In this document: positions 13,393-63,413 of the stretch, piece after piece
How positions within the stretch are numbered: position 1 is the stretch's first letter
Layout: every line of letters starts with the position of its first letter
Sequence record: OX638288
Reading direction: 5' to 3' (one strand)
DNA from: Escherichia phage UP19
DNA length: 64,000 bases
The notes under the pieces: generated by a model
The model's database searches: none
What the model was told of the DNA's origin: nothing
The model's input: only the letters and a program-made list of their open reading frames with translations
Made by a program: the position numbers and the translations under genes

Positions 13393-13649
13393 TGGCTGTT
13401 GGATTTGCTAAGGACGGAGCCGAACAGCTCGAAATGGAAGCGGTCGTTCAGGCCGCTATAGTACACGCCCGTAAGCAAGTAGCAGTTGAACGTGAATCGG
13501 CTAAATATTGTTTTGATTGTGATGAAGAGATTCCTGAAGCACGACGTCAAGCTATCAAAGGTGTGATATATTGTATAGGTTGTCAGTCAATGCATGATGA
13601 AATTTTTAAACGTGAGCCACGTAACTGTTGGCACAGGAGCATGAGATGA
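13392..13649 (+). CDS. DksA/TraR-type C4 zinc-finger protein (85 aa)
   Basis: CFDC-x17-CIGC spacing typical of TraR/DksA zinc fingers. Confidence 0.55.
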   Translation: MAVGFAKDGAEQLEMEAVVQAAIVHARKQVAVERESAKYCFDCDEEIPEARRQAIKGVIYCIGCQSMHDEIFKREPRNCWHRSMR

Positions 13650-15982: not shown

Positions 15983-16002
15983 AAGGCCTTCGGGCCTTTT
16001 TT
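15983..16002 (+). terminator. rho-independent terminator
   Basis: AGGCC-TTCG-GGCCT followed by TTTTTT. Confidence 0.7.
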
Positions 16003-16022
16003 GGGTTTAGTGCAAAAAAGTA

Positions 16023-16051
16023 GTGTACATCTGCTTTAAACATGTTATTAT
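16023..16051 (+). promoter_or_regulatory. T4-type early promoter (GTGTAC, 17 nt, TATTAT)
   Basis: near-identical to the cassette at 16335-16363. Confidence 0.5.
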
Positions 16052-16101
16052 AGACCTATCAGCTAAAGAGCTGAAAACTTAAACCAAACGGAGATATAAA
16101 A

Positions 16102-16332
16102 ATGTACGCTATCAAAAATTACAAATACGGTTCTTACACTACTAACTTGATCGCTCTGGAAGATACCTTTAAAGCTGATCGTGCTGAAGAATATGAAATT
16201 ATTGAAGCTGTAACTAAAAACAAAGGTAAACAAGTTGTTATGCCTAATGGCCGTAAAGCTGCTCTTTATACAGTAAATGGTGAAACATGGGCCCGCTATA
16301 AAGATGGCTTCTGTGAAATTATTGCAAAATAA
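16102..16332 (+). CDS. hypothetical protein (76 aa)
   Basis: ORF track; GGAGA SD. Confidence 0.55.
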   Translation: MYAIKNYKYGSYTTNLIALEDTFKADRAEEYEIIEAVTKNKGKQVVMPNGRKAALYTVNGETWARYKDGFCEIIAK

Positions 16333-19306: not shown

Positions 19307-19522
19307 ATGGAAATCTTAGGTTTTATTCTCCTTTACTTTGTGCTAGGATTTATGACGACCTTTATCATTCATAAATCAGGTGATTGGAATCCAATCGAAA
19401 TTGAATCAAGCTATGATGCAGTATTCATTACACTAGTATGGCCCCTACTTTGGGTTGTTTTGGTCATTATGATGGTGTTTTGGCCTATTGCTAAATTCTA
19501 TGAAAAATTATTTGGACTTTAA
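19307..19522 (+). CDS. hypothetical membrane protein (71 aa)
   Basis: ORF track; two hydrophobic helices. Confidence 0.5.
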   Translation: MEILGFILLYFVLGFMTTFIIHKSGDWNPIEIESSYDAVFITLVWPLLWVVLVIMMVFWPIAKFYEKLFGL

Positions 19523-19523
19523 T

Positions 19524-20405
19524 ATGAACATTAAAACACGTAAAGAATACTCTATATACGACCATGACACGACTCGTCGTATCGCTATCGATCGGCTAGC
19601 CGACTTTGGCTATATTCGTAATGGTAATTATACTTATGGTGTAGGACGTAAAGGAACTTATATCGGTTCTTTGAACGATTATTGCCGTTGCCCAGCCCAC
19701 CTGTTTGGTGCAACATTGCGGGCTAATATCAAAGACCTCTTGGCTACCGCAGGACGTATTTCTACGGTTCCTGTTAATATCAAAAGTATTAATTTTACGG
19801 CTCGTAACCTAGTCATTAATATTCTGGCTGACGGTATTCAAGTTCGTTTCCGTCCTACCTCAAAAGGTAATAAGGCCCTTCGTGAAGCATTCGAAACCTT
19901 ATTCAGAGAAGCAATGACTCGTATTAAGGCCGTAGAATCATATAAAGTTACAACCGATGAATATGCTGATTGTTCTGGACGGGCTGATGCGGTGTATTTT
20001 AATGTTAAACTAACTCGTGAATATCTTTTGTCTTATGCCCCTTATCAATCCCAACAAAAGGACCCACAAATGGAACGTCGTATATCTATCGCTACCTCTA
20101 CAGTATCATGTGACAGTGTAGGCCAGTATGCAGCCTATGACAAATTCAAAACCACTGCTGTGCCTAGTCCATTCAATTCCGAACCATATCATTGGAAAAT
20201 TAAACCTGATAATTCTTTGGTTGTTACTAACCCTACGATGAAACCTATTGAGACCTATTATGCAGATAGCATTCAGGAATCAATCCACCGTTTAAATGGT
20301 CAGATTGAAGATGAGAAAAAGAGCATTCAAGACGTATTGACCCGCATCAAGAATATGGAAAACCAGCGTGACAAGCTCAGCGCGGCACTATTAGCTCTAA
20401 AATAG
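19524..20405 (+). CDS. hypothetical protein (293 aa)
   Basis: ORF track 19488..20405 trimmed to ATG after previous stop. Confidence 0.55.
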   Translation: MNIKTRKEYSIYDHDTTRRIAIDRLADFGYIRNGNYTYGVGRKGTYIGSLNDYCRCPAHLFGATLRANIKDLLATAGRISTVPVNIKSINFTARNLVINILADGIQVRFRPTSKGNKALREAFETLFREAMTRIKAVESYKVTTDEYADCSGRADAVYFNVKLTREYLLSYAPYQSQQKDPQMERRISIATSTVSCDSVGQYAAYDKFKTTAVPSPFNSEPYHWKIKPDNSLVVTNPTMKPIETYYADSIQESIHRLNGQIEDEKKSIQDVLTRIKNMENQRDKLSAALLALK

Positions 20406-21693: not shown

Positions 21694-21916
21694 AGAATAT
21701 GTAGAGGCCGCCGATAAGGCGGTTCGTGAACTTACTCTGGCTTATTATAAAGAGCATGGTAAATTCCCGGACAGTTATTCAGTATTGAAATCTGCTTTAA
21801 CTCGTTCATATAATAATATGCGTTCAGAAGTTTATGATATTATGGACAAACATAAAGAACAAACCGGTCAATACCCGGATTATACTGAGACCTTCAAACA
21901 AGTATTAGGAATTTAA
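21677..21916 (+). CDS. hypothetical protein (79 aa)
   Basis: ORF track 21497..21916 trimmed to internal ATG. Confidence 0.45.
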
Positions 21917-21917
21917 A

Positions 21918-22181
21918 ATGTTTAAAATTTATGGTTATGATTCAAATATTCATCGTTGTGTTTTCTGTGATAATGCTAAACGTTTTTTGGATGTTAAGAA
22001 ACAACCTTACGAATTCATCAACGTTATGCCAGAAAAAGGTATGTTTGATGATGAGAAGATTGCTCAACTCCTGGCTGCACTTGGTCGCGAATCTCAAATC
22101 GGTTTGACCATGCCGCAAGTATTTGCCCCTGACGGAACTTCTATTGGTGGCTTTGACCAACTGCGAGCATATTTCAAATGA
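21918..22181 (+). CDS. nrdC: glutaredoxin/thioredoxin NrdC (87 aa)
   Basis: MFKIYGYDSNIHRCVFCDNAKR... matches T4 NrdC as recalled; CVFC active site. Confidence 0.9.
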   Translation: MFKIYGYDSNIHRCVFCDNAKRFLDVKKQPYEFINVMPEKGMFDDEKIAQLLAALGRESQIGLTMPQVFAPDGTSIGGFDQLRAYFK

Positions 22182-24706: not shown

Positions 24707-25004
24707 AATTGAGATTTACGGTATCCCTGAGACAGTCATGCGCTGTCCAGGGTGCATTGCAGTTCTATCGCTCCTAAATTCCCTTTCTATCCCACATACT
24801 TTCTATCCTGTGATTAACCAGACGCCGTCAGGCGCAGTATATGACAAGCCTCTTATAGTATCATTGGCCAAACGTGCCGGCTTCAAGAGCTTAGCTATAC
24901 GCTATCCTGTAATCTTTGTTGATAATAAGAAAATAGAAAATATTCCTGCCTTCAAATCCCTTTTGATTGAGCTTGGCTATGACCGAGATTTAATTGAAGA
25001 TTAG
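24687..25004 (+). CDS. thioredoxin-fold protein with CPGC motif (NrdH/glutaredoxin-like), GTG start (105 aa)
   Basis: ORF track 24543..25004 trimmed to GTG 9 nt after AAGGAG; KIEIYGIPETVMRCPGC. Confidence 0.45.
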   Translation: MDQKLTKIEIYGIPETVMRCPGCIAVLSLLNSLSIPHTFYPVINQTPSGAVYDKPLIVSLAKRAGFKSLAIRYPVIFVDNKKIENIPAFKSLLIELGYDRDLIED

Positions 25005-25005
25005 T

Positions 25006-25034
25006 ATTTACTTCCTCTCCTCACGTGTTATAGT
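25006..25034 (+). promoter_or_regulatory. T4-type early promoter-like (ATTTAC, 17 nt, TATAGT) with inverted repeat CTCCTCA/TGAGGAG
   Basis: arms 25017-25023 and 25051-25057. Confidence 0.45.
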
Positions 25035-25063
25035 CTATCCTATCAACACATGAGGAGAACATT

Positions 25064-25240
25064 ATGACTATCCAAGATAAAGAAATTAAAGTCAACCAGT
25101 ATTATTCAATCAACGGCAAAGCTGTTCTAGTAACTGAAATATCTAGCCTAGACGTGTGGTATACCATAATTGACCTTAATATTAAAACGATTTGTGACCG
25201 TGGTGTATTTTGTTCGATAGCTAAGGAAATTAAATTATGA
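25064..25240 (+). CDS. small protein (58 aa), below ORF-track cutoff
   Basis: translated by eye; GAGGAGAA SD. Confidence 0.4.
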   Translation: MTIQDKEIKVNQYYSINGKAVLVTEISSLDVWYTIIDLNIKTICDRGVFCSIAKEIKL

Positions 25241-25491
25241 GCCTGAAATTGCATTCAATGAAAAATGTCATCACCCTTAATCTGGATGATGAGCGCCTAA
25301 TTTTTCTCACCGTCACTGATAAGAATATTGAAATTGCAAATGGTCCTAAGACTTATTGCTGTCCTGTTAAGAATTGGAAGCATGTAACCTTTTTGACCCT
25401 GGCCGACCGTCTGAAAGACCTTAAGTTGGATTTGGATATCAAAGACATCCAGTACATTAAAAACCTTATTGGATACAAACTGTTGAGGTAA
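25237..25491 (+). CDS. hypothetical protein (84 aa)
   Basis: ORF track. Confidence 0.5.
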   Translation: MSLKLHSMKNVITLNLDDERLIFLTVTDKNIEIANGPKTYCCPVKNWKHVTFLTLADRLKDLKLDLDIKDIQYIKNLIGYKLLR

Positions 25492-25493
25492 CT

Positions 25494-25787
25494 ATGGGTA
25501 AAACTATCCGTCGTAAAGAATTGCCATCTAGAGATTTTAATTGCATTGCTAGACGTAAAGCACCTGATGGCGTATCGGAAGAAACTTTGAATGAAAATAT
25601 CTTCCGGTCAGATAAATGGAAACGCTTTAGCGGCGTTGATTCTGAAGTTAAGAATGAAATGAACCGCCAACTTCGTAAAGAAGTGAGAAAACTGAAAAAA
25701 GATGTTTACAGCGACGATGAACCTGATTACAATACTTCTCATCGAGTTGCAAAACGTAAATCAAACGAATGCTATCGTTACAGCTGA
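25494..25787 (+). CDS. hypothetical basic protein (97 aa)
   Basis: ORF track. Confidence 0.5.
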   Translation: MGKTIRRKELPSRDFNCIARRKAPDGVSEETLNENIFRSDKWKRFSGVDSEVKNEMNRQLRKEVRKLKKDVYSDDEPDYNTSHRVAKRKSNECYRYS

Positions 25788-25794
25788 GGAAAAT

Positions 25795-25926
25795 ATGAAT
25801 ATCAAACGTATGCTTTTTAAACAAGGATTATACACTTTAAATGTTACTCCAAAAGGCGATACGACTAAGTGGTCAGTAAATGACTGGATTAAATTTATTG
25901 ATGAAAACGGCAACTGGAAAATTTAA
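25795..25926 (+). CDS. small protein (43 aa)
   Basis: ORF track 25702..25926 trimmed to ATG after GAGGAAA. Confidence 0.4.
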   Translation: MNIKRMLFKQGLYTLNVTPKGDTTKWSVNDWIKFIDENGNWKI

Positions 25927-26127
25927 ATGAATCCTGAATCTAAATTATCACAACGAATTGCTGAAGCCCGTCGTCAGTTCTTTGAAAATATGATAGCTCA
26001 AGGTATTGATGACGAAGTTTTTCTAAACTGGTTTTGGAATAACAAATATTCAAAATGCGCAGGAGCAATATTAATATCAGCCGCAATGATGTATGAAGGT
26101 TGGAAAGGTGCATTAGCACAAAAATAG
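25927..26127 (+). CDS. hypothetical protein (66 aa)
   Basis: ORF track. Confidence 0.5.
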   Translation: MNPESKLSQRIAEARRQFFENMIAQGIDDEVFLNWFWNNKYSKCAGAILISAAMMYEGWKGALAQK

Positions 26128-26156
26128 TTTACAAACTCTTGGGACCAGAGTATAAT
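26127..26156 (+). promoter_or_regulatory. T4-type early promoter (GTTTAC 26127-26132, TATAAT 26151-26156) with -10 inside GGACC/GGTCC hairpin
   Basis: 18-nt spacer; hairpin arms flank the -10 hexamer. Confidence 0.55.
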
Positions 26157-26196
26157 GGTCCTACGGATTATAAATTTTTAAACTGAGGAAATTATT

Positions 26197-26526
26197 ATGT
26201 CACAAGCTATTAAAAACGTACTGAACTCTTTCGCTTTCGATAAAGTTAATGAACTGATGAAAACTGGCTTTGTAACTCCTCAGGTTCTTGACCAATGGGT
26301 TGCTGAACTGTTACCAATCATGCACTCTAAAGACCAAAAAATTGGTAAGAACGGTATTCGTGAAATCCTGGTTCAATATATTCTCGACGAGTTTGATGTG
26401 GCCGCCTTTGGTGTCGAATCTAAAGCTTGGCAGCCAGGTGAAATCACAGACAAAACCATCCGTCGTATGAAGAATCAACGTAAGAAAAAATTCGTTGACC
26501 TGAAAATTGTTAAGGCAGCTAAATGA
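26197..26526 (+). CDS. hypothetical protein (109 aa)
   Basis: ORF track; leader and first codons shared with ORF 18377. Confidence 0.55.
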   Translation: MSQAIKNVLNSFAFDKVNELMKTGFVTPQVLDQWVAELLPIMHSKDQKIGKNGIREILVQYILDEFDVAAFGVESKAWQPGEITDKTIRRMKNQRKKKFVDLKIVKAAK

Positions 26527-26771
26527 GTAATTTGCCTGAAGATGTATCGGTTATAATAGTCCTTAAAGCTTTAGCCGGTTTCCAACGTACCCCTATGATG
26601 AATAATAGTGAAACCATTATAAAAGCGGCTAATATGCTAAGTGGAAGTCATCGCGATTTCAGGATATTTCCTATAAGCTCTAAGACCACTTATATGAAAA
26701 TGCCCGATCCTAAAATAGCTTGGGACGAAGGCATGACATTAAATGAATTTGAGGATTATTTAAATGATTAA
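26523..26771 (+). CDS. hypothetical protein (82 aa)
   Basis: ORF track. Confidence 0.5.
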   Translation: MSNLPEDVSVIIVLKALAGFQRTPMMNNSETIIKAANMLSGSHRDFRIFPISSKTTYMKMPDPKIAWDEGMTLNEFEDYLND

Positions 26772-27030
26772 AATAAAACTCTCTAATTACGATAAAAACT
26801 TGGAAATGATTGCTATGAAAGAAGAACTCCTGAATGATGTCCGCTTTACAGGTTATGCAGTCCAATTTAATGGTGATGGGGCTCTCCAGATTGAAGGTGA
26901 CCACTTTATTATCGAATATGAATTTAAACGGTACTGGCTATACGCTAAAGATGAAGTTGGCGGTATTGATTACGTCGATGAGTTTGATAATCTTGATGAT
27001 GCATTAGAAGGAGCTCGATTCCTACAATGA
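26764..27030 (+). CDS. hypothetical protein (88 aa)
   Basis: ORF track. Confidence 0.5.
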   Translation: MIKIKLSNYDKNLEMIAMKEELLNDVRFTGYAVQFNGDGALQIEGDHFIIEYEFKRYWLYAKDEVGGIDYVDEFDNLDDALEGARFLQ

Positions 27031-27290
27031 AACCCATATCCACCACCCTCGCTTATGAAGGTCTCGGATTTTTCTTAATAGATAACTGTATGGATGTTGA
27101 GTTTGTTTGTGGTGAGACTTCTTTAGTATGGAAGTCTCATATTTCCAAATACAACCATCGGGATTATCCGGAACTTTTTAAAGAATTTTGCGGATATATG
27201 TCCGAACATGGATGTACTGATACAATTTCTTATCCCGAGTTCATACAAATCCTTGAAACAGTATTTCAGGCTTATTGCTTACTCCGTTGA
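27027..27290 (+). CDS. hypothetical protein (87 aa)
   Basis: ORF track. Confidence 0.5.
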   Translation: MKPISTTLAYEGLGFFLIDNCMDVEFVCGETSLVWKSHISKYNHRDYPELFKEFCGYMSEHGCTDTISYPEFIQILETVFQAYCLLR

Positions 27291-27317
27291 TGCTTTAAAC
27301 GGGTCTCCAAATACTAT
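27291..27317 (+). promoter_or_regulatory. candidate MotA-dependent middle promoter (TGCTTTA box 27291-27297, -10 TACTAT)
   Basis: MotA-box-like heptamer about 13 nt upstream of a -10-like hexamer, upstream of gene 55. Confidence 0.35.
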
Positions 27318-27356
27318 GATATAATAGACCTATGATTTGAGTTATCTGAGGTAACA

Positions 27357-27914
27357 ATGACCGAAATTAAACTGACTAAAAATAACTATGTAAATAATAA
27401 GGAGCTTCTGAAAGCCATTACCCAGTGGAAAACAGAACTCCGAGAAAATACCGACCCTAATAAAATAGTTCGTCAGAACGACGTTATCGGCTTGGCTATT
27501 ATGCTCATTGCTGAAGGCCTTTCTAAGCGTTTCAACTTCTCCGGATATACCCAATCTTGGAAGCAAGAAATGATTGCTGATGGAATCGAAGCCTCTATTA
27601 AAGGTCTTCATAACTTCGACGAAACAAAATACGACAACCCACATGCATATATCACTATGGCTTGTTTTAATGCCTTTGTTCAGCGTATCAAGAAAGAACG
27701 TAAAGAAATGGCAAAGAAATACAGCTACTTCGTCCATAACGTTTATGACGCCAATGACGACGACATGGTAGGTATCGCAGATGAAACTTTTATCCAGGAT
27801 ATTTACGACAAAATGACTCAGTATGAAACCTCTTTAGTTAAAGCGCCAGGGTCTGATAAGAGCGCCGAATCTAAAGTTGGTGAGCTGGATTTTTTATATG
27901 GAACTCAAGATTAA
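27357..27914 (+). CDS. 55: late-transcription sigma factor gp55 (185 aa)
   Basis: YVNNKELL...[55 protein letters not shown] matches T4 gp55 as recalled. Confidence 0.92.
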
Positions 27915-28125
27915 CCTGGTAGGCCTTTTAGAAGAAGTAGATGGAGAGTATTCGGCAATTCCTTATGTTCTTAAAATGTACCTTAAGGATATTGCCAAGC
28001 TTCCTATTGTAATAGACCCAAAACACCCTGATTCAGTAGAAATTAAAGCTGAAAAAGGAACATTAACTTATAACTATCACGTTACCGACGAAGATTTTTA
28101 TATAAAACTGAATTACAAGGATTAA
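27898..28125 (+). CDS. hypothetical protein (75 aa)
   Basis: ORF track 27877..28125 trimmed to ATG. Confidence 0.5.
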
Positions 28126-28126
28126 T

Positions 28127-28438
28127 ATGCAAAGCACCGACATTTCTCAATTGACCGAAGAGCAAATTGAAGAAGCCCAGAAGCGTTTAGAAGAGAATAA
28201 TGCTAAAGAAGCCGCTTCTCAAGCTGCCAAAATTCTTAAAAAGAATGCCCGTGAAATTAAGCGTCTTAATACACATGCTCAGGGCGCTGTTCTCGAAAAC
28301 AATTTCGAAGCTTACAAATATGCTATAATTAAATTACGTGGTATTTACCGTCAACCGACTACTGACGAAATCGTTAGAGTTATGTGGGAAACTACGCGTA
28401 AACAGATTTGGGAAATTATCAATGGCGCTAGTAAATAA
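28127..28438 (+). CDS. hypothetical protein (103 aa)
   Basis: ORF track. Confidence 0.5.
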   Translation: MQSTDISQLTEEQIEEAQKRLEENNAKEAASQAAKILKKNAREIKRLNTHAQGAVLENNFEAYKYAIIKLRGIYRQPTTDEIVRVMWETTRKQIWEIINGASK

Positions 28439-28622
28439 ACCCTTTAAACGGCTTCTTATTGGAGCCGCCTTCAGACTTCGCTCATACGGTAATATTTGTA
28501 TTAAGCAGACTGAAACCGAATATAAAATGATTGGGCAGTATTCCGATGAAATTTTTCGGATTGAGCCTGTAGCCAAGGTTTGGGTGGATTCACATCAACT
28601 TAAGAAGTGGTGGCAACGATGA
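28425..28622 (+). CDS. hypothetical basic protein (65 aa)
   Basis: ORF track 28338..28622 trimmed to ATG. Confidence 0.4.
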   Translation, partial: ALVNKPFKRLLIGAAFRLRSYGNICIKQTETEYKMIGQYSDEIFRIEPVAKVWVDSHQLKKWWQR

Positions 28623-28710
28623 TAACATGGACAGGTGGCTAATGAAAGACGAACATCCGGATTTTTAAGCTATGAATGACGAATACGAAAAAGTTTAAGA
28701 GGTTTTATGA

Positions 28711-28884
28711 ATGACGAATTCGATGGATTTTGATAAGATTAAATCTGACAAAAATGAGATGATACTTAAATTTGAAGCTGCTCGTATTAAAGCGGAAAAT
28801 GAAGGTACTATTACCTATAAGCCTATCAAGTTCAGGTCTTCTCATGAACCTCTGTATGGCGTATTAATTGGTAAAGGAGCTTAG
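28711..28884 (+). CDS. small protein (57 aa), below ORF-track cutoff
   Basis: translated by eye; AAGAGG SD 8 nt upstream. Confidence 0.4.
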   Translation: MTNSMDFDKIKSDKNEMILKFEAARIKAENEGTITYKPIKFRSSHEPLYGVLIGKGA

Positions 28885-28895
28885 GCTCCTTTTTT
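28874..28895 (+). terminator. rho-independent terminator
   Basis: GGAGC-TTAG-GCTCC followed by TTTTTT. Confidence 0.6.
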
Positions 28896-28938
28896 GCTTT
28901 ATATTCGGATGATAAAATGAACCAACTGAGGAGAACAT

Positions 28939-29082
28939 ATGGAATTACTTTTAGGATATGTCGTGTTATTCATGGCATTCTACACATTCACACGAGCCTG
29001 TTGGATAGGATTCTTTTCTACTCCTGATGGGTTCATCTCAATAATTTTATTTTGCATTGCGATAACGGTGCTCGGCTTATGA
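28939..29082 (+). CDS. small membrane protein (47 aa)
   Basis: translated by eye; GAGGAGA SD; ATGA overlap with gene 47 start. Confidence 0.45.
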   Translation: MELLLGYVVLFMAFYTFTRACWIGFFSTPDGFISIILFCIAITVLGL

Positions 29083-30101
29083 AAATATTAAACACAGGTG
29101 ACTGGCACCTTGGAGTGAAGGCCGATGATGTGTGGGTACAAAATATCCAACGTCAAGGTATCCAAGACGCTATCAATTATTCTAAAGCAAATGGTATTAC
29201 CGTGTGGATTCAATACGGTGATATCTTTGACGTTCGTAAAGCAATTACCCATAAGTGTATGGAATTCGCTCGCGAAATCTCTGATTTGCTTAAAGCTAAT
29301 GGCATTACCATGTATACCATTGTTGGTAATCATGATATGCACTACAAAAATACCTTGACTCCTAACGCAGCTTCTGAAGTTCTGGGTAAATATGACCATA
29401 TCAAGGTTATTGAGAAACCTACTACGGTTAACTTTGATGGCACCGAAATTGATTTGATTCCATGGATGTGTGAAGAAAACACGACTGATATCATGGACCA
29501 TATCAAAAATACCACAGCAGATTTCTGTATTGGACATTGGGAATTAAATGGTTTCTATTTCTATAAAGGAATGAAATCTCATGGTTTAGAACCTGATTTC
29601 CTTAAAAAGTATAAGCAAGTTTGGTCAGGCCACTTCCACACTATTTCTGATGCAGCAAACGTCAAGTACATTGGTACTCCATGGACCCTTACTGCAGGCG
29701 ATGAGAACGACCCTCGTGGTTTCTGGATTTTCGATACCGAAACTCATAAAATGGATTTCATCATTAATGAAACCTGTTGGCATCGTAAGATTCATTATCC
29801 TAACGAGACTATCGATTACAAAGATTTTACAAATATCGCAGTTCGTGTTATAGTCGATAAAATCGATGACGGTCTTACTAAGTTCGAATCAGAGCTTGAA
29901 AAGGTTGTTCACTCTTTACGTATTGTGTCTAAGGTAGATAATAGTGTTGATATCGATGATTCTGAAGAGGAAGACGAAGTTAAATCCCTCTTGGATATGA
30001 TGTATGATTATATCGATGCCCTTCCTGATGGCCACACTGAAGCCGATGTTAAAGCCCTTAAGACTATGGCTGCACAACTTTATAATGAGGTTACACGATG
30101 A
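29079..30101 (+). CDS. 47: recombination nuclease subunit gp47 (SbcD/Mre11-like), 340 aa
   Basis: ORF track 29052..30101 trimmed; MKILNTGDWHLGVKADD... matches T4 gp47 as recalled. Confidence 0.93.
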   Translation: MKILNTGDWHLGVKADDVWVQNIQRQGIQDAINYSKANGITVWIQYGDIFDVRKAITHKCMEFAREISDLLKANGITMYTIVGNHDMHYKNTLTPNAASEVLGKYDHIKVIEKPTTVNFDGTEIDLIPWMCEENTTDIMDHIKNTTADFCIGHWELNGFYFYKGMKSHGLEPDFLKKYKQVWSGHFHTISDAANVKYIGTPWTLTAGDENDPRGFWIFDTETHKMDFIINETCWHRKIHYPNETIDYKDFTNIAVRVIVDKIDDGLTKFESELEKVVHSLRIVSKVDNSVDIDDSEEEDEVKSLLDMMYDYIDALPDGHTEADVKALKTMAAQLYNEVTR

Positions 30102-30361
30102 CTTTAGATGAATTCAAAAAATCGGGACTTGAACTGGAACACGACTGTATAGTTATTGATGATGATGGTCAACCTAGTACAATTAAGTTCTGGTTTGAAG
30201 CCGTGAGCACTCGTGATACCGGCGAGCTTATTAAAGTTTATGTTGCTACCGATTGGGCTGTAGAATTTAGCTTTAATGTAATGGTAGATGATACTCCAGA
30301 AACATTAATTCATATGGCTGAATCATGCATCAAGGATGCTTATAACGATGAAGACTTTTAA
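30098..30361 (+). CDS. hypothetical protein (87 aa)
   Basis: ORF track; ATGA overlap. Confidence 0.5.
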   Translation: MTLDEFKKSGLELEHDCIVIDDDGQPSTIKFWFEAVSTRDTGELIKVYVATDWAVEFSFNVMVDDTPETLIHMAESCIKDAYNDEDF

Positions 30362-32030
30362 GTTAAAGAAAGTAACGTATAAAAATATTATGTCGGTCGG
30401 GCAGCAGCCCATTACAATCCAACTTGATAAGGTCCAAAAGACCTTAGTCACTGGTAAAAATGGTGCAGGGAAATCAACATTCCTTGAAGCTGTAACATTT
30501 GCTCTGTTCGGTAAGCCTTTTCGTGATGTTAAGAAAGGGCAGTTGATTAACTCAAGTAACAAGAAAGACCTTTTGGTCGAACTGTGGATGGAATATGATG
30601 GCAAAGAATACTATATCAAACGCGGGCAAAAACCCAACGTTTTTGAAATCTCTTGTGACGGTGAACGTCTTGATGAATCTGCCAGCAGTAAAGACTTCCA
30701 AGCGGAATTTGAACAGCTTATCGGAATGTCCTATGCAAGCTTCAAACAAATTGTCGTACTCGGCACAGCTGGATATACCCCTTTTATGGGCCTATCCACT
30801 CCTGCAAGAAGAAAACTCGTCGAAGACCTCTTAGAGGTTTCTGTATTGGCGGATATGGATAAGTTAAACAAATCTTTGATTCGTGAGACCAATAGCCAAA
30901 TCCAAGTAATAGACGTTAAGCAAGATTCTATTACCCAACAAATTAAAATTTATAATGACAACGAAGAACGTCAACGTAAATTATCTGGCGAAAACGCTGC
31001 CCGTCTACAATTAATGTATGATGAGCTCGTTAAAGAAGCCAGGACTGCGAAGGCGAGCATAGAATCCCTGACTGATGAATTACTCAATGTTATCGTAGAT
31101 GATGACCCTAGCGATTCCATGAGTGACCTGAGTAATAAAGGATTTGCAATCAAAAATGATATGGCAACCTTTACAAAGGTGGTTAAGTTATACGAAACCG
31201 GTGGTCACTGCCCTACGTGTATGCAAGGGTTAGAAGAGAATGGTAATATCCTTACTAAAATTAAGGATAAAAACTTTGAGCTTCAAAAATCTTTGGATAA
31301 GATTAATGAGCAATACCAAGAGCTCAAGCTCATTAAAGACCAAGTAACCGAACAACGCAATAAAGCGTTGGCTATTAAATCTCAGATAGCTACTCATAAG
31401 CAGCAAGCCATTACTGCTGTAGAGAAAGCCAAAAAGGTTAAGGTATTAATTGACCAAGCGGCAGCTGAGTTCGTAAGTAATGCCGAAGAGATTGCTGCGC
31501 TTCAAGCAGAGCTTGATAAAATCGTCTCTACCAAATCGTCCTTGGTAATGGAAAAATATCATCGTGGAATTCTGACAGAAATGTTGAAGGATACAGGTAT
31601 TAAAGGTTCCATTATTAAGAAATACATTCCTATCTTTAATAAGCAGATTAATTCTTATTTGAAGATGTTAGAGGCGGATTATAGTTTTTCTCTTGACGAA
31701 GAGTTCAATGAGACGATTAAGTCGCGTGGACGCGAAGACTTTAGTTATGCTTCATTTAGTGAAGGTGAAAAGTCTAGAATAGATGTGGCTCTGTTATTTA
31801 CCTGGCGAGATATTGCTTCAAAGGTTTCAGGCATTAATATATCTACTCTTATTCTTGATGAGGTCTTTGATGGAAGTTTTGATGCAGAAGGTATTAAAGG
31901 TGTATCAAATATTATAAATTCTTTGGAAGATTCTAATGTCTTTATAATTTCACACAAAGACCATGACCCACAATCGTATGGACAACATTTACAAATGAAG
32001 AAGGTTGGCCGCTTTACAGTATTAGAATAA
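30348..32030 (+). CDS. 46: recombination nuclease ATPase subunit gp46 (SbcC/Rad50-like), 560 aa
   Basis: ORF track 30336..32030 trimmed; MKTFKLKKVTYKNIMSVGQ...GKNGAGKST matches T4 gp46 as recalled. Confidence 0.93.
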   Translation: MKTFKLKKVTYKNIMSVGQQPITIQLDKVQKTLVTGKNGAGKSTFLEAVTFALFGKPFRDVKKGQLINSSNKKDLLVELWMEYDGKEYYIKRGQKPNVFEISCDGERLDESASSKDFQAEFEQLIGMSYASFKQIVVLGTAGYTPFMGLSTPARRKLVEDLLEVSVLADMDKLNKSLIRETNSQIQVIDVKQDSITQQIKIYNDNEERQRKLSGENAARLQLMYDELVKEARTAKASIESLTDELLNVIVDDDPSDSMSDLSNKGFAIKNDMATFTKVVKLYETGGHCPTCMQGLEENGNILTKIKDKNFELQKSLDKINEQYQELKLIKDQVTEQRNKALAIKSQIATHKQQAITAVEKAKKVKVLIDQAAAEFVSNAEEIAALQAELDKIVSTKSSLVMEKYHRGILTEMLKDTGIKGSIIKKYIPIFNKQINSYLKMLEADYSFSLDEEFNETIKSRGREDFSYASFSEGEKSRIDVALLFTWRDIASKVSGINISTLILDEVFDGSFDAEGIKGVSNIINSLEDSNVFIISHKDHDPQSYGQHLQMKKVGRFTVLE

Positions 32031-32713
32031 TGAGACATCTTGTTTACAAAATAATAAATTTAGTTAATAATAAGTACTATGTAGGGATACATAGTACTGA
32101 AAATATTAAAGATTCGTATATGGGCTCTGGTTTATATATTAAAGCTTCTATTAAAAAATATGGTTTGGAAAATCATAGAAAGGAAATACTTTATAATTTT
32201 GATACCAGAGAAGAGGCTATCCAAATGGAAAGAATTATAGTCAATGAGGAATTTATAAAGAACCCTCTTACATATAATATTTCTTTAGGAGGTAATGCCG
32301 CACCTTTTATAAAAGAGGAAACCAGACTTAAACAGAGTATAGCTGCTAAAAATAGACCGTATTCATTTTATGAAAACCTTTTTAAAACTAGAAAGAAATC
32401 TAAATGCCTAGAGCTAAGAAATAAATCTAAAGAACATATAGAAAAAATTCGTCAGAGTAATATAAGAAATGGTACATATTTGCCTGAGAACAACCCTATG
32501 TTCGGAAAAACTCATAGCCAAGAAACAAGGGATAAAATTTCTATAGCCCTTAATTCTAGGTCTGACGAAGCAAAACAGGCTATGAAAAGCAAACAATCTG
32601 CAAAAGCTAAAAGCAGACCAACTGTAAAGTGCCCATATTGTGATAAAATTGGCTCTAACAACATTATGAAACGATGGCACTTTGATAATTGTAAATTAAA
32701 GGATGCTTCATAA
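32030..32713 (+). CDS. GIY-YIG homing endonuclease (Seg-like), 227 aa
   Basis: GIY-YIG motif 'VYKIINLVNNKYYVGIHST'; AT-rich codon usage; inserted between 46 and rpbA. Confidence 0.8.
   Translation: MRHLVYKIINLVNNKYYVGIHSTENIKDSYMGSGLYIKASIKKYGLENHRKEILYNFDTREEAIQMERIIVNEEFIKNPLTYNISLGGNAAPFIKEETRLKQSIAAKNRPYSFYENLFKTRKKSKCLELRNKSKEHIEKIRQSNIRNGTYLPENNPMFGKTHSQETRDKISIALNSRSDEAKQAMKSKQSAKAKSRPTVKCPYCDKIGSNNIMKRWHFDNCKLKDAS
32030..32713 (+). mobile_element. free-standing homing endonuclease gene
   Basis: GIY-YIG ORF between conserved genes; markedly more AT-rich than flanks. Confidence 0.55.
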
Positions 32714-32904
32714 TGAGTGATTTTATAACAGGCCAGCATTTGTTGGCCGTTCCAGAAATAAAGAGATATGTTTTAGTTAACAACTTCTCTGGAGACGAAC
32801 ATCTTGTTACTGAAGATTATCTCCAAAATGCTTTTAAGTCAGAATATGTTACAATCATGTCAAATAGAAATCCAGCATGGTTTGTCTATGAGTACTTTGA
32901 TTAA
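32713..32904 (+). CDS. hypothetical protein (63 aa)
   Basis: ORF track; TAATG overlap. Confidence 0.5.
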   Translation: MSDFITGQHLLAVPEIKRYVLVNNFSGDEHLVTEDYLQNAFKSEYVTIMSNRNPAWFVYEYFD

Positions 32905-32960
32905 ATTGCTTTAAAATATTGATTTATAATACATTTACCAACTAAATGAGAGAAAATATT

Positions 32961-33380
32961 ATGTTTGCTACTTCTAATGGCGTTACCGTTAAAGATATCC
33001 AAGTTAAAACCATCCGTACTGATTCCAACCCACATAATCAGAACCGTATCCGTAAATCATGGGTACTGAATATTGATACCGACTCTGCACGCCGACTGCA
33101 GTCTCTTCCACAAGAAACCAAGTTTATGCTGTACAGTATCATCGATAATGATGTATCTGATAAGTGGATTGAAATCATGCGTAAACACTTTAAAGATTCT
33201 TTGGCTGCAGGTGCTAAACTTGTTATCGACCGCGACGGTTCTGAACGTTTAGAAGACGATTATTGCGTCGACCCTGATGAGCAGTTGCTTGAAGCCGGTT
33301 CTATTATTGCTTCCAAGATTCCAGAGTATATTGAATCTCTGCCTGAATCAATCCGTAAACAAATGATCGTAATTGCTTAA
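32961..33380 (+). CDS. rpbA: RNA polymerase binding protein RpbA-like (139 aa)
   Basis: ORF track 32946..33380 trimmed; position upstream of gene 45 and similarity to T4 RpbA as recalled. Confidence 0.65.
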   Translation: MFATSNGVTVKDIQVKTIRTDSNPHNQNRIRKSWVLNIDTDSARRLQSLPQETKFMLYSIIDNDVSDKWIEIMRKHFKDSLAAGAKLVIDRDGSERLEDDYCVDPDEQLLEAGSIIASKIPEYIESLPESIRKQMIVIA

Positions 33381-33405: not shown

Positions 33406-34104
33406 ATGAAATTCTCTAAAGAAACCCTGAACATTCTTAAAAACTTCTCTGGTATTAACCCAGGCATTATGCTTAAACCAGGTAACACCATTCTGACCCG
33501 ATCTGTTACCGGTGCAAGTTATGGTGAAGCTACTGTAAGTGATACCTTCGATATCGAAGCAGCAATCTATGATTTGAATGGCTTCTTAAGTATTCTGTCT
33601 TTGGTATCGGAAAGTGCTGAAGTTTCGGTAAGTGAAGACCAAACAACATTAATTATTAAAGACCAACGTTCAACAATTAAGTGGCCTATTGCCGACCCAA
33701 GCACAATCGCATTCCCAAGTAAAGCTATTCCGTTCCCTGTGGCCGAAGTTATTTTCGACCTGAAAGCCGAAGATTATCAACAGTTGATGCGTGTGTCCTC
33801 TGGTCTGAGTATTGATACATTTGCAATCACTGTAGACGATGGTAAAATTGTTATCAACGGTTATAAACAAGTCGACGATAAAGAATTAACTCGCCCATTG
33901 TATTCTCTGGTCGTGGCCGACCATGATGGTCCTGACTTTAAGTTCATCATTAACAAAACCAATATGAAAATGATGCCTGCTGATTATCATGTGTTGTTAT
34001 GGGCGCGCGGTGAAGGTCAGGATGCTCGATTTGCAGCTAAGTTTGAAGGTACACAAGCTTCTTATGTATTAGCTATGGAAGCAGGCTCAAGCCACTCGTT
34101 CTAA
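33406..34104 (+). CDS. 45: sliding clamp gp45 (232 aa)
   Basis: MKFSKETLNILKNF...AIYDLNGFLSILSL matches T4 gp45 as recalled. Confidence 0.93.
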   Translation: MKFSKETLNILKNFSGINPGIMLKPGNTILTRSVTGASYGEATVSDTFDIEAAIYDLNGFLSILSLVSESAEVSVSEDQTTLIIKDQRSTIKWPIADPSTIAFPSKAIPFPVAEVIFDLKAEDYQQLMRVSSGLSIDTFAITVDDGKIVINGYKQVDDKELTRPLYSLVVADHDGPDFKFIINKTNMKMMPADYHVLLWARGEGQDARFAAKFEGTQASYVLAMEAGSSHSF

Positions 34105-34165: not shown

Positions 34166-35125
34166 ATGCTTACAGTAAATAATAATGAATTCATGTGGGA
34201 ACAGAAATATCGTCCAGGTACTTTATCTGAATGTATTCTGCCTGCTCATGATAAAGAAACTCTCCAAGCCATTGTTAATAAGGGCCTAATCCCTAACATT
34301 ATCCTAGTCTCTGCTTCACCAGGCACAGGTAAAACTACCGTGGCTAAAGCATTGTGTGCTGATACAAATTCAGACATGTTGTTTGTTAACGGTTCCGACT
34401 GTCGTATTGATTTCGTTCGTAACGAACTTACTCGTTTTGCATCTTCTAAATCTATCGAAGGTAAACGTAAGGTAATTGTTATTGACGAATTCGACCGTGC
34501 TGGTGTTGCTGAAGCTCAACGCCACCTTCGTTCATTCTTAGAGGCCTATTCCTCAAACTGTTCTGTAATTATTACAGCAAACAATATTGATGGTATCATC
34601 GGTCCACTTCAATCCCGTTGTCGTGTAATTAAATTTGGTGAAGCCACTCCAGCTGACCAAACAGCCATGATGAAAGAAATGATTCATCGTGCCGTAGCAA
34701 TTTGTAAAAACGAAAATATCGAAGTCGAAGACCTTAAAGTTATTGCGGCTTTAGTTAAACAAAACTTCCCTGACTTCCGTAAAACAGTTAACCAACTGGA
34801 CCGTTATTCCTCAAGTGGTAAAATCGATACAGGCATTTTGAGTATTGTAATGAATACCAATTCGCCTATTGATGAAGTAGTGGCTGCACTGAAAGATAAA
34901 AACTTTAAAGAACTCCGTGCATTAGCTCCTCGCCATGTCAATGATTATGCCAACTTTATTATGGCATTGGCTAACGAACTCTATGGTAAATTGCCTGGAC
35001 CAAGCATTGTTAGAATGTATGAAATCGTCGGTGAAAATAACCAATACCACGGTATTGCTGCTAACCCAGAAATTCACCTGACTTATCTGTTTATCCAACT
35101 TGCTCTGGAGCTCCAATGGCTATAA
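34166..35125 (+). CDS. 44: clamp loader large subunit gp44 (319 aa)
   Basis: Walker A SPGTGKTT; matches T4 gp44 as recalled. Confidence 0.95.
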   Translation: MLTVNNNEFMWEQKYRPGTLSECILPAHDKETLQAIVNKGLIPNIILVSASPGTGKTTVAKALCADTNSDMLFVNGSDCRIDFVRNELTRFASSKSIEGKRKVIVIDEFDRAGVAEAQRHLRSFLEAYSSNCSVIITANNIDGIIGPLQSRCRVIKFGEATPADQTAMMKEMIHRAVAICKNENIEVEDLKVIAALVKQNFPDFRKTVNQLDRYSSSGKIDTGILSIVMNTNSPIDEVVAALKDKNFKELRALAPRHVNDYANFIMALANELYGKLPGPSIVRMYEIVGENNQYHGIAANPEIHLTYLFIQLALELQWL

Positions 35126-35688
35126 GTCTTTTTGATGATGACGTTGAACTGAATGAACATGAAGTTGCTTGGAAACAACGTAACGACGCTGCTATTCAAG
35201 CCTTGGCCGATTCATTTAAAGAAAAGGCTGAAAATGAATTGTTCGCCATTATGAACGATATCACGTACGGTAAAAAACAACGTAACCTGGCTCAATCAGA
35301 AAACTATAATCAATTCTGGCTCGATAATAGTTTGAGCCAGCACGTAGATTGCATTATGCAAGCTGCAATGGTTAACTGTCTTAAACTTGACGACCAAAGT
35401 CACTTCAATTATCTTTTACATGCTGTTCCTAAGGGTAAGAGATTTGGTAAATGGGCTAAGGCCCATGATGATGAAGTTAGTGTAGTTTTTATTACTCGTT
35501 TATTGATGAAATACCATTCAATTAATAATGATGACGCTTATCGTTATCTCGAGACTTATAAAATTAAAGGCCATCTTCCAGCAATGCTTAAGAAGATGAA
35601 AGGGTTGGTTACGGACGAGTTCCTGAAATCCGTAACCAAAAATGTGAAAGAACAAAAAGACTTGAAAAAGAAAGCATTGGAATGGTAA
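35116..35688 (+). CDS. 62: clamp loader small subunit gp62 (190 aa)
   Basis: matches T4 gp62 as recalled; overlaps gene 44 end. Confidence 0.9.
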   Translation: MAISLFDDDVELNEHEVAWKQRNDAAIQALADSFKEKAENELFAIMNDITYGKKQRNLAQSENYNQFWLDNSLSQHVDCIMQAAMVNCLKLDDQSHFNYLLHAVPKGKRFGKWAKAHDDEVSVVFITRLLMKYHSINNDDAYRYLETYKIKGHLPAMLKKMKGLVTDEFLKSVTKNVKEQKDLKKKALEW

Positions 35689-53572: not shown

Positions 53573-53805
53573 TGAATTGGCTAACTAATATACCTACATC
53601 GGCGTTGGATATCGACCGTAAACAAGCTCGTAAGGAAACCGAGCAAAAAAATATTCAGGCAAAAGCTCCTAAGATTGAAGCTGAGAAGCCAGAAACAAAA
53701 AGCTCTTATGAATCAAAAAGCTCCTATACTTCATATACCCAATCCTCATTAGGCATGGCTGCCGACATTGCAGTGTTTGGCGTCCCACTTGGTGTGTTTA
53801 AGTAG
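53572..53805 (+). CDS. hypothetical protein (77 aa)
   Basis: ORF track 53551..53805 trimmed to TAATG-overlap ATG. Confidence 0.45.
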   Translation: MNWLTNIPTSALDIDRKQARKETEQKNIQAKAPKIEAEKPETKSSYESKSSYTSYTQSSLGMAADIAVFGVPLGVFK

Positions 53806-61595: not shown

Positions 61596-63413
61596 ATGAT
61601 TAAGAATGAAATTAAAGTACTGTCCGACATTGAACATATCAAAAAACGTAGTGGGATGTATATTGGCTCAAGTGCTAATGAAGCCCACGGTCGATTCCTG
61701 TTCGGTAATTTTACCCAGGTGAACTATGTTCCTGGACTGGTTAAATTAATTGACGAAATCATTGATAACTCTGTCGATGAGGCTATTCGTACCAATTTTA
61801 AATTCGCAAATAAAATTGATGTTCAAATTAAGAATAACCAGGTTTCGGTTTCTGATAATGGCCGTGGTATTCCTCAAGCAATGGTTACTGACCAAAACGG
61901 TGAACAAATTCCAGGTCCTGTAGCTGCATGGACTATTCCAAAGGCCGGTGGTAACTTTGGAGATGACGCTGAGCGTAAGACAGGCGGCATGAACGGTGTT
62001 GGTAGTAGTTTAACTAATATCTTCTCTGTTTTGTTCACAGGCATCACCTCTGATGGTGAGAATGAGATTACTGTTAACTGTTCCAATGGAATGGAAAACA
62101 AAGGTTGGTCTACTAAGAAATCTAAAGGTAAGGGTACTTCGGTTATATTCACCCCAGACTTTAACCATTTCGAAGAAAATAGTCTGTCCCAAATTTATCT
62201 GGATATTACATTAGACCGTCTTCAAACACTGGCCGTAATTTATCCAGATATCCAATTTACTTTTAATGGTAAAAAAGTAGATGGTAACTTTAAAAAGTAT
62301 GCTAAGCAATTTGGTGAAGACTTTGTAATCCAAGAAACTGATAATGTTTCGATGGCATTTACTCCTTCTCCGGACGGGTTCCGTCAACTGACGTATGTAA
62401 ACAATATCCATACCAAGAATGGTGGCCACCACGTTGAATGTGTGTTTGATGATATTTGTGAGCACCTTCTGCCTGGTATTAAAAAGAAATATAAAGGAAT
62501 CGAAGTAACTAAGGCTCGTGTTAAAGAATGCCTTACTATGGTAATGTTCATTCGTGATATGAGCAATATGCGTTTTGATTCACAGACTAAAGAGCGATTA
62601 ACCTCTCCGTTTGGTGAGATTCGTAACCATATCCAAATTGATGCTAAGAAAATTGCAACGGCTATTCTTAAGGTCGATGGGTTGATTATGCCTATTGTCG
62701 AAGCCGCTTTAGCACGTAAACTCGCTGCTGAAAAAGCCGCCGAAACAAAAGCTGCTAAGAAAGCTTTGAAAGCCAAGGTCCATAAGCATATTAAAGCCAA
62801 TATGTATGGCAAAGACGCTGATACGACTTTATTCCTTACGGAAGGTGATTCTGCAATGGGTCCTTTCATTGAAGTTCGTAATAAAGACCTCCAAGGTGGT
62901 TATCCGTTACGCGGAAAGGTTATGAATACCTGGGGTATGACTGCTGCCGATATCATGAAGAACAAAGAATTGTTTGATATCTGTGCAATCACTGGACTGG
63001 TTATTGGTGAACCTGCAGATAAAACCAACTACCGAAATATCGCTATCATGACTGACGCCGATGTGGATGGTACTGGTTCGATTTATCCTTCGTTATTAGC
63101 TTTCTTTAGTCAGTGGCCGGAATTGTTTGAACAGGGACGAATTCGTTTCTGTAAGACTCCTGTAATTATTGCCCAGATTGGTAAAGAACAAGAATGGTTT
63201 TATGACGTTCCTAGTTATACCAAAGTCAAGGACTCTCTACCAAAACATTCTATTCGATATATCAAAGGTCTCGGTTCTCTTGAGAAAGCTGAATACCGTC
63301 GAATGATTCAGGACCCTAAATTTGATGTGGTTCAATTGCCTGAAGATTGGAAAGAACAGTTCGAAATGCTCCTTGGAAACGACCCTCAACTCCGTAAGGC
63401 TTGGATGTCGTAA
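61596..63413 (+). CDS. 39: DNA topoisomerase II large (ATPase, GyrB-like) subunit gp39 (605 aa)
   Basis: GyrB ATPase motifs; matches T4 gp39 as recalled. Confidence 0.95.
   Translation: MIKNEIKVLSDIEHIKKRSGMYIGSSANEAHGRFLFGNFTQVNYVPGLVKLIDEIIDNSVDEAIRTNFKFANKIDVQIKNNQVSVSDNGRGIPQAMVTDQNGEQIPGPVAAWTIPKAGGNFGDDAERKTGGMNGVGSSLTNIFSVLFTGITSDGENEITVNCSNGMENKGWSTKKSKGKGTSVIFTPDFNHFEENSLSQIYLDITLDRLQTLAVIYPDIQFTFNGKKVDGNFKKYAKQFGEDFVIQETDNVSMAFTPSPDGFRQLTYVNNIHTKNGGHHVECVFDDICEHLLPGIKKKYKGIEVTKARVKECLTMVMFIRDMSNMRFDSQTKERLTSPFGEIRNHIQIDAKKIATAILKVDGLIMPIVEAALARKLAAEKAAETKAAKKALKAKVHKHIKANMYGKDADTTLFLTEGDSAMGPFIEVRNKDLQGGYPLRGKVMNTWGMTAADIMKNKELFDICAITGLVIGEPADKTNYRNIAIMTDADVDGTGSIYPSLLAFFSQWPELFEQGRIRFCKTPVIIAQIGKEQEWFYDVPSYTKVKDSLPKHSIRYIKGLGSLEKAEYRRMIQDPKFDVVQLPEDWKEQFEMLLGNDPQLRKAWMS

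Follow-up and report, generated by a model that had tools for sequence, protein, structure and literature searches.

A stretch of 64,000 nucleotides from Escherichia phage UP19 (sequence record OX638288; the whole stretch is called the window below) comes from a T4-type phage of the genus Dhakavirus (JS98/JS10 group) and carries, immediately downstream of gene 46, an open reading frame (ORF) that we call seg. We consider it probable that seg is a free-standing homing endonuclease gene of the GIY-YIG Seg type, situated at the overlap of genes 46 and 45.2, and that it has spread by homing with co-conversion of flanking DNA. Its sequence and its predicted fold place the gene in the T4 Seg family of free-standing GIY-YIG homing endonucleases. 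Its arrival seems to be recent and to have carried in about 370 bp of the adjoining gene 46. The features on which this reading depends are the following.

30348..32030, plus strand: gene 46, Rad50/SbcC-like recombination nuclease subunit, the upstream neighbour (Pfam AAA_23/SMC_N; annotation in relatives)
32030..32713, plus strand: seg, Seg-like free-standing homing endonuclease gene, 227 amino acids (ORF listing, PHROG 314, homologue in UGJNEcP3 and UGJNEcP4)
32713..32904, plus strand: gene 45.2, the downstream neighbour (Pfam Gp45_2, E 5e-26)
32961..33380, plus strand: rpbA
31650..32748, no strand: mosaic patch of 1,099 bp made up of seg and the gene 46 3' end (100% identical to UGJNEcP3)
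31667..32029, plus strand: putatively co-transferred gene 46 3' tract, candidate cleavage-site region in seg-less alleles (divergence profile)
32027..32034, plus strand: left 8-nt direct repeat ATAATGAG, holding the gene 46 stop and the seg start (sequence, junction alignments)
32710..32717, plus strand: right 8-nt direct repeat ATAATGAG, holding the seg stop and the 45.2 start (sequence, junction alignments)

A 3.1-kb query around the locus matched JS10, EcWhh-1, IME281 and JS98 at 93-96% identity, and no record was identical to it. The seg ORF itself was found in two of 259 matching phage records, UGJNEcP3 and UGJNEcP4, where it has 100% amino acid identity, occupies the same site and is annotated as 'homing endonuclease'. 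Between the window and UGJNEcP3 there are 0 mismatches from 31650 to 32748, 75 in the 1 kb to the left and 72 in the 750 bp to the right; these flanks are 7-10% diverged from UGJNEcP3 and nearly identical to seg-less relatives. None of the seg-less relatives of UGJNEcP3 is closer to it at this locus than about 94%. Comparison with the seg-less phage EcWhh-1 gives the mirror image, namely 5 mismatches in 30300-31666 (1,367 bp), 97 (27%) in 31667-32029 and a single one past the insert up to 33500, so that divergence beside the tract is about 0.1-0.4% on each side. Given these mirror-image patterns, the left crossover would lie in 31650-31666 and the right crossover in 32713-32748, limits that are mapped in one background, that of the window. 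As read from these alignments, seg and the final 363-380 bp of gene 46 were transferred as one unit. Its presence in a different backbone is consistent with co-conversion but does not establish the nuclease as the cause. The patch is an unusually clean natural example of the homing type, whose two ends are placed with an uncertainty of 17 and 36 bp. Identity to IME281 is mostly 98-100% from 20.0 to 45.4 kb of the window, and the only 200-nt bins of this span below 94% are those in the patch.

The gene 46 tract that accompanies seg codes for the signature motif of the Rad50-like ATPase, Walker B and the H-loop. Over its first 1,317 nt, gene 46 is 92-100% identical among Dhakaviruses and 67-69% identical to that of T4. 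The window tract is 73% identical to that of JS10 in nucleotides (83% in amino acids), 72% to that of IME281 in nucleotides, 79% to that of T4 (86% in amino acids) and 84% to that of FB (94% in amino acids), which is the closest. IME281 and JS10 themselves are 99% identical in the upstream part of gene 46 and 81% identical in the tract. A search of the phage collection returned no close donor for the window tract, the nearest matches being FB at 85% and Tequatrovirus at 79.6%.

The ORF coordinates and the GIY-YIG motif given in the original prediction, which had been made from the letters of the window and an ORF list, are both correct; the N-terminus reads MRHLVYKIINLVNNKYYVGIHST, and the motif corresponds to residues 5-23. 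The predicted overlap of seg with the gene 46 stop is likewise present in the sequence, where the gene 46 TAA (32028-32030) and the seg ATG (32030-32032) have one base in common and form TAATG. At the other end of the gene, the seg TAA and the 45.2 ATG also overlap by one base and form a second TAATG. The prediction had placed seg between 46 and rpbA. Gene 46 is indeed the upstream neighbour, but the downstream neighbour is 45.2, with rpbA one gene beyond. Likewise, the statement that genes of this kind invade intergenic sites holds for the insertion but not for the intergenic space: because 46 and 45.2 overlap as ATGA in seg-less relatives, the insert is located at a gene-gene overlap.

Comparison with insert-free relatives, which had been proposed as a check, supports insertion, since most Dhakaviruses are seg-less and have the direct ATGA overlap of 46 and 45.2. 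This empty site is found in 35 of the 40 best-matching records, and the seg-less relatives include JS10, JS98 and EcWhh-1. In the junction alignments the empty site reads GAATGAGTG, and the net insert is 686 bp. The 8-nt repeat at the ends of the insert suggests that seg entered at microhomology around the 45.2 start, and microhomology-mediated ectopic invasion has been discussed for T4-type endonuclease genes (PMC2988022). The gene is free-standing, not part of an intron or intein; it lies between intact copies of 46 and 45.2, and some close relatives have it while others lack it. The next-best phage proteins, encoded elsewhere in their genomes, reach no more than 43% identity (39% over the full length). 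Metagenomic searches yielded no closer copy of the protein, and the IMG/VR viral contigs contained only distant relatives, at most 55% identical and confined to the N-terminal domain.

The seg gene is compositionally foreign. Its GC content is 0.301 and its GC content at third codon positions (GC3) is 0.228, while 684-nt segments of the window have a mean GC content of 0.390 (standard deviation 0.022). Only 0.35% of such segments have a GC content as low as that of seg, and the 25 lowest of the 64 kb all start within 31521-32101; the seg ORF is the most AT-rich stretch of the window. Per 1000 codons, seg has 48 ATA and 44 AGA, compared with 6.7 and 3.6 in the flanking genes, which is a 7-12-fold enrichment, and 105 AAA compared with 54. 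The last 366 nt of gene 46 have a GC3 of 0.262, versus 0.390 in the remainder of that gene. Thus, the AT-richness and the AAA and ATA codons that were noticed at the outset are confirmed, and rather than an ORF present in all relatives with host-like codons, we find a foreign one in very few records.

The seg protein has three recognizable parts.

32030..32305, plus strand: GIY-YIG catalytic domain, N-terminal, residues 1-92
32426..32542, plus strand: NUMOD3 DNA-binding motif, residues 133-171 (Pfam PF07460, E 8e-8, 32.5 bits, cutoff 20.4)
32624..32686, plus strand: C2HC zinc knuckle CPYCDKIGSNNIMKRWHFDNC, C-terminal, residues 199-219 (family alignment; predicted structure)

NUMOD3 is the sole Pfam model above threshold. 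The protein matches PHROG 314, 'homing endonuclease', with an E value of 2.7e-50. By local blastp, it is 51% identical to T4 SegD over 94 amino acids (residues 1-94, E 4e-32), 50.5% identical to SegB (E 4e-29), 48% to SegC (E 2e-23), 47% to SegE (E 3e-22), 39% to SegA (E 4e-18) and 29% to SegF; SegG gave no match at E <= 10. The alignment to I-TevI is limited to residues 1-19 and the NUMOD3 segment, and a sequence search of the PDB returned nothing relevant. Seven residues are invariant in an alignment of 56 database homologues (Y6, Y17, G19, Y30, S33, E67 and N83), and all seven are present in the window Seg. The GIY and YIG tripeptides correspond to V5-Y6-K7 and Y17-V18-G19, located on modelled strands 2-10 and 16-23. 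The putative catalytic glutamate and asparagine are the invariant E67 (EAIQMERIIV) and N83 (TYNIS), which we matched by eye to E75 (IIERENF) and N90 (GYNIA) of I-TevI.

An AlphaFold2 model of the protein has a mean predicted local distance difference test score (pLDDT) of 83.7, with values above 96 for residues 1-80. The model has the alpha/beta fold of GIY-YIG enzymes, and its top three Foldseek matches are all the I-TevI catalytic domain (probability 1.0, template modelling score for the target 0.65). The C-terminal 30 residues are modelled as strand-strand-helix, the C2HC knuckle, with pLDDT above 90. This knuckle is kept across the family of Seg homologues and is found in none of the T4 Seg and Mob proteins. 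The assignment to the Seg clade draws on similarity to the T4 Segs, the invariant residues, the modelled fold and its Foldseek matches, and NUMOD3. On these grounds, the seg protein is a predicted Seg-clade GIY-YIG enzyme whose DNA-binding tail differs from those of the T4 Segs. The Seg-type reading originally proposed for this ORF is supported by the SegD and PHROG 314 matches, the I-TevI-like fold and the sporadic presence of the gene.

The window Seg shares with T4 SegA-E the layout GIY...YVG...DxYMGSG...KKYG...E...YN. Like SegD and SegA, SegB, SegC and SegE, it is free-standing, has a length of about 220 amino acids and is encoded beside a conserved gene of DNA metabolism. Its C-terminal half, however, has no detectable similarity to any T4 Seg, and the C2HC knuckle is lacking in the T4 proteins. 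In T4, 46 and 45.2 are separated by a 55-bp spacer without an endonuclease gene, whereas the window has seg at this position; unlike T4 segD, the window gene is oriented as its neighbours are. I-TevI is encoded in the td intron and the window Seg is not intron-encoded. In addition, I-TevI carries its zinc in a linker zinc finger followed by a helix-turn-helix, whereas the window Seg has a C-terminal C2HC knuckle. What is new here is the insertion site for a Seg gene and the combination of GIY-YIG domain, NUMOD3 and C2HC knuckle, which is unseen in the T4 Segs. The known workings of homing elements are unchanged by these observations, which are of use for studying how endonuclease elements contribute to mosaicism and make an essential recombination gene locally hypervariable.

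When T4 Seg enzymes home, flanking sequence is co-converted. In experiments with SegE, SegF and SegG, a cut in or close to the adjacent conserved gene of a phage that lacks the endonuclease is repaired from the donor, and the endonuclease gene moves with a flank of that adjacent gene by co-conversion (PMC2988022, PMC2330249). The patch at 31650..32748 matches this arrangement, with a presumed target in the adjacent conserved gene of seg-less phages. By analogy, in a mixed infection the window Seg would cut both strands of a seg-less allele, either at the 46/45.2 junction or further upstream, in the 3' part of gene 46. Resection of the break and repair from the seg-carrying genome would follow, and this repair would copy in seg and, with it, the gene 46 tract of the donor, which is diverged and presumably resistant to cleavage. 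The net process would be intronless homing with co-conversion, as for SegE, SegF and SegG.

Several points weigh against this reading. The Pfam models for the catalytic domain fall below their gathering cutoffs, PF01541 (GIY-YIG) with 14.6 bits versus 22.6 (E 0.042) and PF19835 (SegE_GIY-YIG) with 16.2 bits versus 25 (E 0.012), which is why we used fold prediction and comparison with the T4 Segs; both models do match many homologues that are 32-40% identical to the seg protein. No conserved arginine in the homologue alignment corresponds to the essential R27 of I-TevI, and no counterpart is identifiable by sequence in the window Seg. In the Seg family, this segment is occupied by a DxYxGSG loop and the near-invariant K42/K43 of a KKYG helix, as it is in T4 SegA-E. 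A counterpart of R27 is likewise missing from T4 SegA, SegB, SegC and SegE, which share the DxYxGSG loop and are listed as active nucleases (PMC2988022). Cleavage and biased inheritance are experimental results for SegE, SegF and SegG, whereas for the window Seg they are read from comparative sequence only. Moreover, the patch ends do not locate the cut site, because they coincide exactly with the points at which homology resumes, and there are other short islands of 100% identity between the window and UGJNEcP3 (at about 19400-20200 and 21800-22000) in a genus with pervasive mosaicism. Given this mosaicism, the patch could stem from ordinary recombination. The strongest rival explanation is accordingly that seg is passive cargo, an inactive or nearly inactive gene within a 1.1-kb patch that was exchanged, with no cut by this enzyme, through the homologous recombination that co-infecting T4-like phages ordinarily undergo at very high frequency. 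The window as a whole, which is 96% identical to IME281 and has many diverged blocks, would accommodate such an exchange, and SegD, the closest characterised T4 protein, is listed with its activity as 'ND' and is probably expressed at a very low level (PMC2988022). We nevertheless regard passive exchange as unlikely: the patch consists of an intact endonuclease gene and a diverged tract of a conserved essential gene, which is the layout of SegE, SegF and SegG homing (PMC2988022, PMC2330249), all of the family-invariant residues are intact, and the patch is the sole strongly diverged spot in a 25-kb block that is nearly identical to IME281.

The two other explanations that we weighed are far less probable. 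If seg were ancestral at this site and had been deleted precisely from most Dhakaviruses, slippage or recombination between the 8-nt direct repeats could have mediated the loss. However, repeat-mediated loss would leave GAATAATGAGTG and not the sequence that empty sites contain. The foreign composition of seg, with its rare ATA and AGA codons, the foreign character of the adjacent gene 46 tract (closer to T4 than to JS10), the 100% identity of the Seg protein in two backbones that differ by 6% and the different endonuclease found at the same site in other relatives all argue against this history, and we think it very improbable. The least probable of the explanations is that the seg protein has been domesticated as a DNA-binding factor, for example a regulator using NUMOD3 and the knuckle, and is no longer a mobile nuclease. 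I-TevI is also a transcriptional autorepressor (PMC2988022), and the absence of an arginine aligned with R27 would fit a protein of this type, but the catalytic Tyr/Tyr/Glu/Asn positions are retained, and presence in 3 genomes only, together with foreign composition, is at odds with a conserved host function.

A Seg gene is not the only endonuclease gene at the 46/45.2 junction. In IME281 and FB, the junction carries a gene for an unrelated 238-amino-acid HNH endonuclease on the opposite strand.

IME281 locus L003:2037-2753, minus strand: HNH endonuclease ORF
FB locus L004:2035-2751, minus strand: HNH endonuclease ORF

Near-identical HNH insert DNA is present in Bp7, MX01, KIT01 and 04086, where it was identified by DNA match and not by position. 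Like the window seg, this Mob-like HNH gene is accompanied by its own diverged gene 46 3' tract. It differs from seg in its nuclease domain (ERHHIIPQCMGG...N...EH), its strand, its size (about 772 bp versus 686 bp) and its three copies of a CxxC...H...C knuckle. The two proteins share the knuckle CPxCxKxGxxxNMxRWHFDNC, with up to 67% amino acid identity over 33 residues between the FB HNH protein and the window Seg and 78% identity over 78 nt. The FB HNH gene matches that of IME281 at 96% over only 65% of its length, and the part that differs lies next to gene 46 (L004:2030-2300) and codes for the C-terminal knuckle. We considered a recent gene exchange between the Seg and HNH elements, but the stretch in common is only the 78 nt of the zinc knuckle; because this knuckle is conserved family-wide, we rejected the likeness as evidence of a swap or of a shared target. 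In IME281 and FB, the gene 46 stop is followed by a GCCTC-TTATT-GAGGC hairpin.

Occupation of one site by different classes of endonuclease is known in other phages (PMC10448857), and here two unrelated classes occupy one site in near-identical genomes. We tentatively propose that the 46/45.2 junction may be a contested homing site, at which a plus-strand GIY-YIG Seg gene and a minus-strand HNH Mob-like gene alternate, each dragging along its own cleavage-resistant gene 46 tract; we put this at somewhat less than an even chance. If it is true, the contested tract would be the one that codes for the ATP-binding cassette (ABC) signature, Walker B and H-loop of a Rad50-like protein, gp46, and it is the nuclease complex of gp46 that resects breaks in homing. 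Over about 25 kb the window and IME281 amount to a naturally near-isogenic pair, strongly different at the seg locus alone, and competition or replacement between the two endonuclease classes would then be open to direct test.

All of the genes around seg that we located are on the plus strand, and a middle-promoter-like site lies upstream of them.

28895..28918, plus strand: MotA-box-type middle-promoter-like site upstream of 47.1/47 (match to the pattern TGCTTTA-N11-TAAAAT; predicted function)
ends at 30101, plus strand: gene 47
30098-30361, plus strand: gene 46.2
33406-34104, plus strand: gene 45
34166-35125, plus strand: gene 44
35116-35688, plus strand: gene 62

The T4 late promoter TATAAATA has no match near seg and 4 matches elsewhere in the window, and a sigma-70-type scan gave nothing upstream of the ORF. 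Another MotA-box-type match is found at 32907, before rpbA. Given the MotA-type matches at 28895 and 32907, and with no promoter found that belongs to seg itself, its transcripts probably arise by read-through from the upstream 47/46 unit. The pattern TGCTTNA-N11-13-TANNNT occurs 11 times in the window, compared with 3.5 expected, and none of 100 shuffles reached 11; 7 of the 11 matches are on the plus strand, the reading strand of all genes examined. Since no Shine-Dalgarno sequence was found before the seg ATG, translation probably depends on reinitiation after gene 46 and would proceed at a low level by termination-reinitiation at TAATG. Of the 12 free-standing endonuclease ORFs of T4, 5 overlap the gene before them and have no initiation region (PMC2988022). 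The 3' end of seg carries a Shine-Dalgarno-like AAGGA 9 nt before the 45.2 ATG and, given this and the second TAATG, the insert would preserve translational coupling for 45.2.

When the start region (31985-32110) was folded, no significant structure hiding the start codon emerged (z -1.75). Within seg, over the KYYVGIHST codons, there is an inverted repeat at 32073-32098 whose 11-bp arms pair perfectly around a 4-nt loop (AGTACTATGTA GGGA TACATAGTACT). This is the longest perfect hairpin of the window, and at least one such hairpin arises anywhere in the window in about 10% of block-shuffle trials. It could limit translation or stop antisense transcription.

A tblastn search with the T4 Seg and Mob proteins and the HNH ORFs found no other Seg-like or Mob-like gene in the window. 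At 61600-62800, identity between the window and IME281 is only 67-81%, next to sequence that is much more alike; synteny assigns this block to gene 39 (topoisomerase II large subunit) and a hypothetical gene upstream of it, and no T4-type Seg or Mob homologue was detected in it. Sequences at about 13400-13600, 16000-16300 and 53600-53800 have no IME281 counterpart (indels or replacements), and many blocks of 73-90% identity to IME281 lie in 1-16 kb and 48-54 kb. These diverged blocks and indels indicate broad mosaicism of the genome in comparison with its nearest sequenced relatives. Finally, a block of about 7 kb at 23400-30600 matches UGJNEcP3 at close to 100% identity, with 99-100% in most 200-nt bins and 94% and 98% in two bins near 29200-29600; about 1 kb separates its end from the seg patch downstream. 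The part of it from 25000 to 29000 is also near 100% identical to EcWhh-1 and IME281 and is 92-100% identical to JS10. The block reflects either unusual conservation or a further recent exchange.

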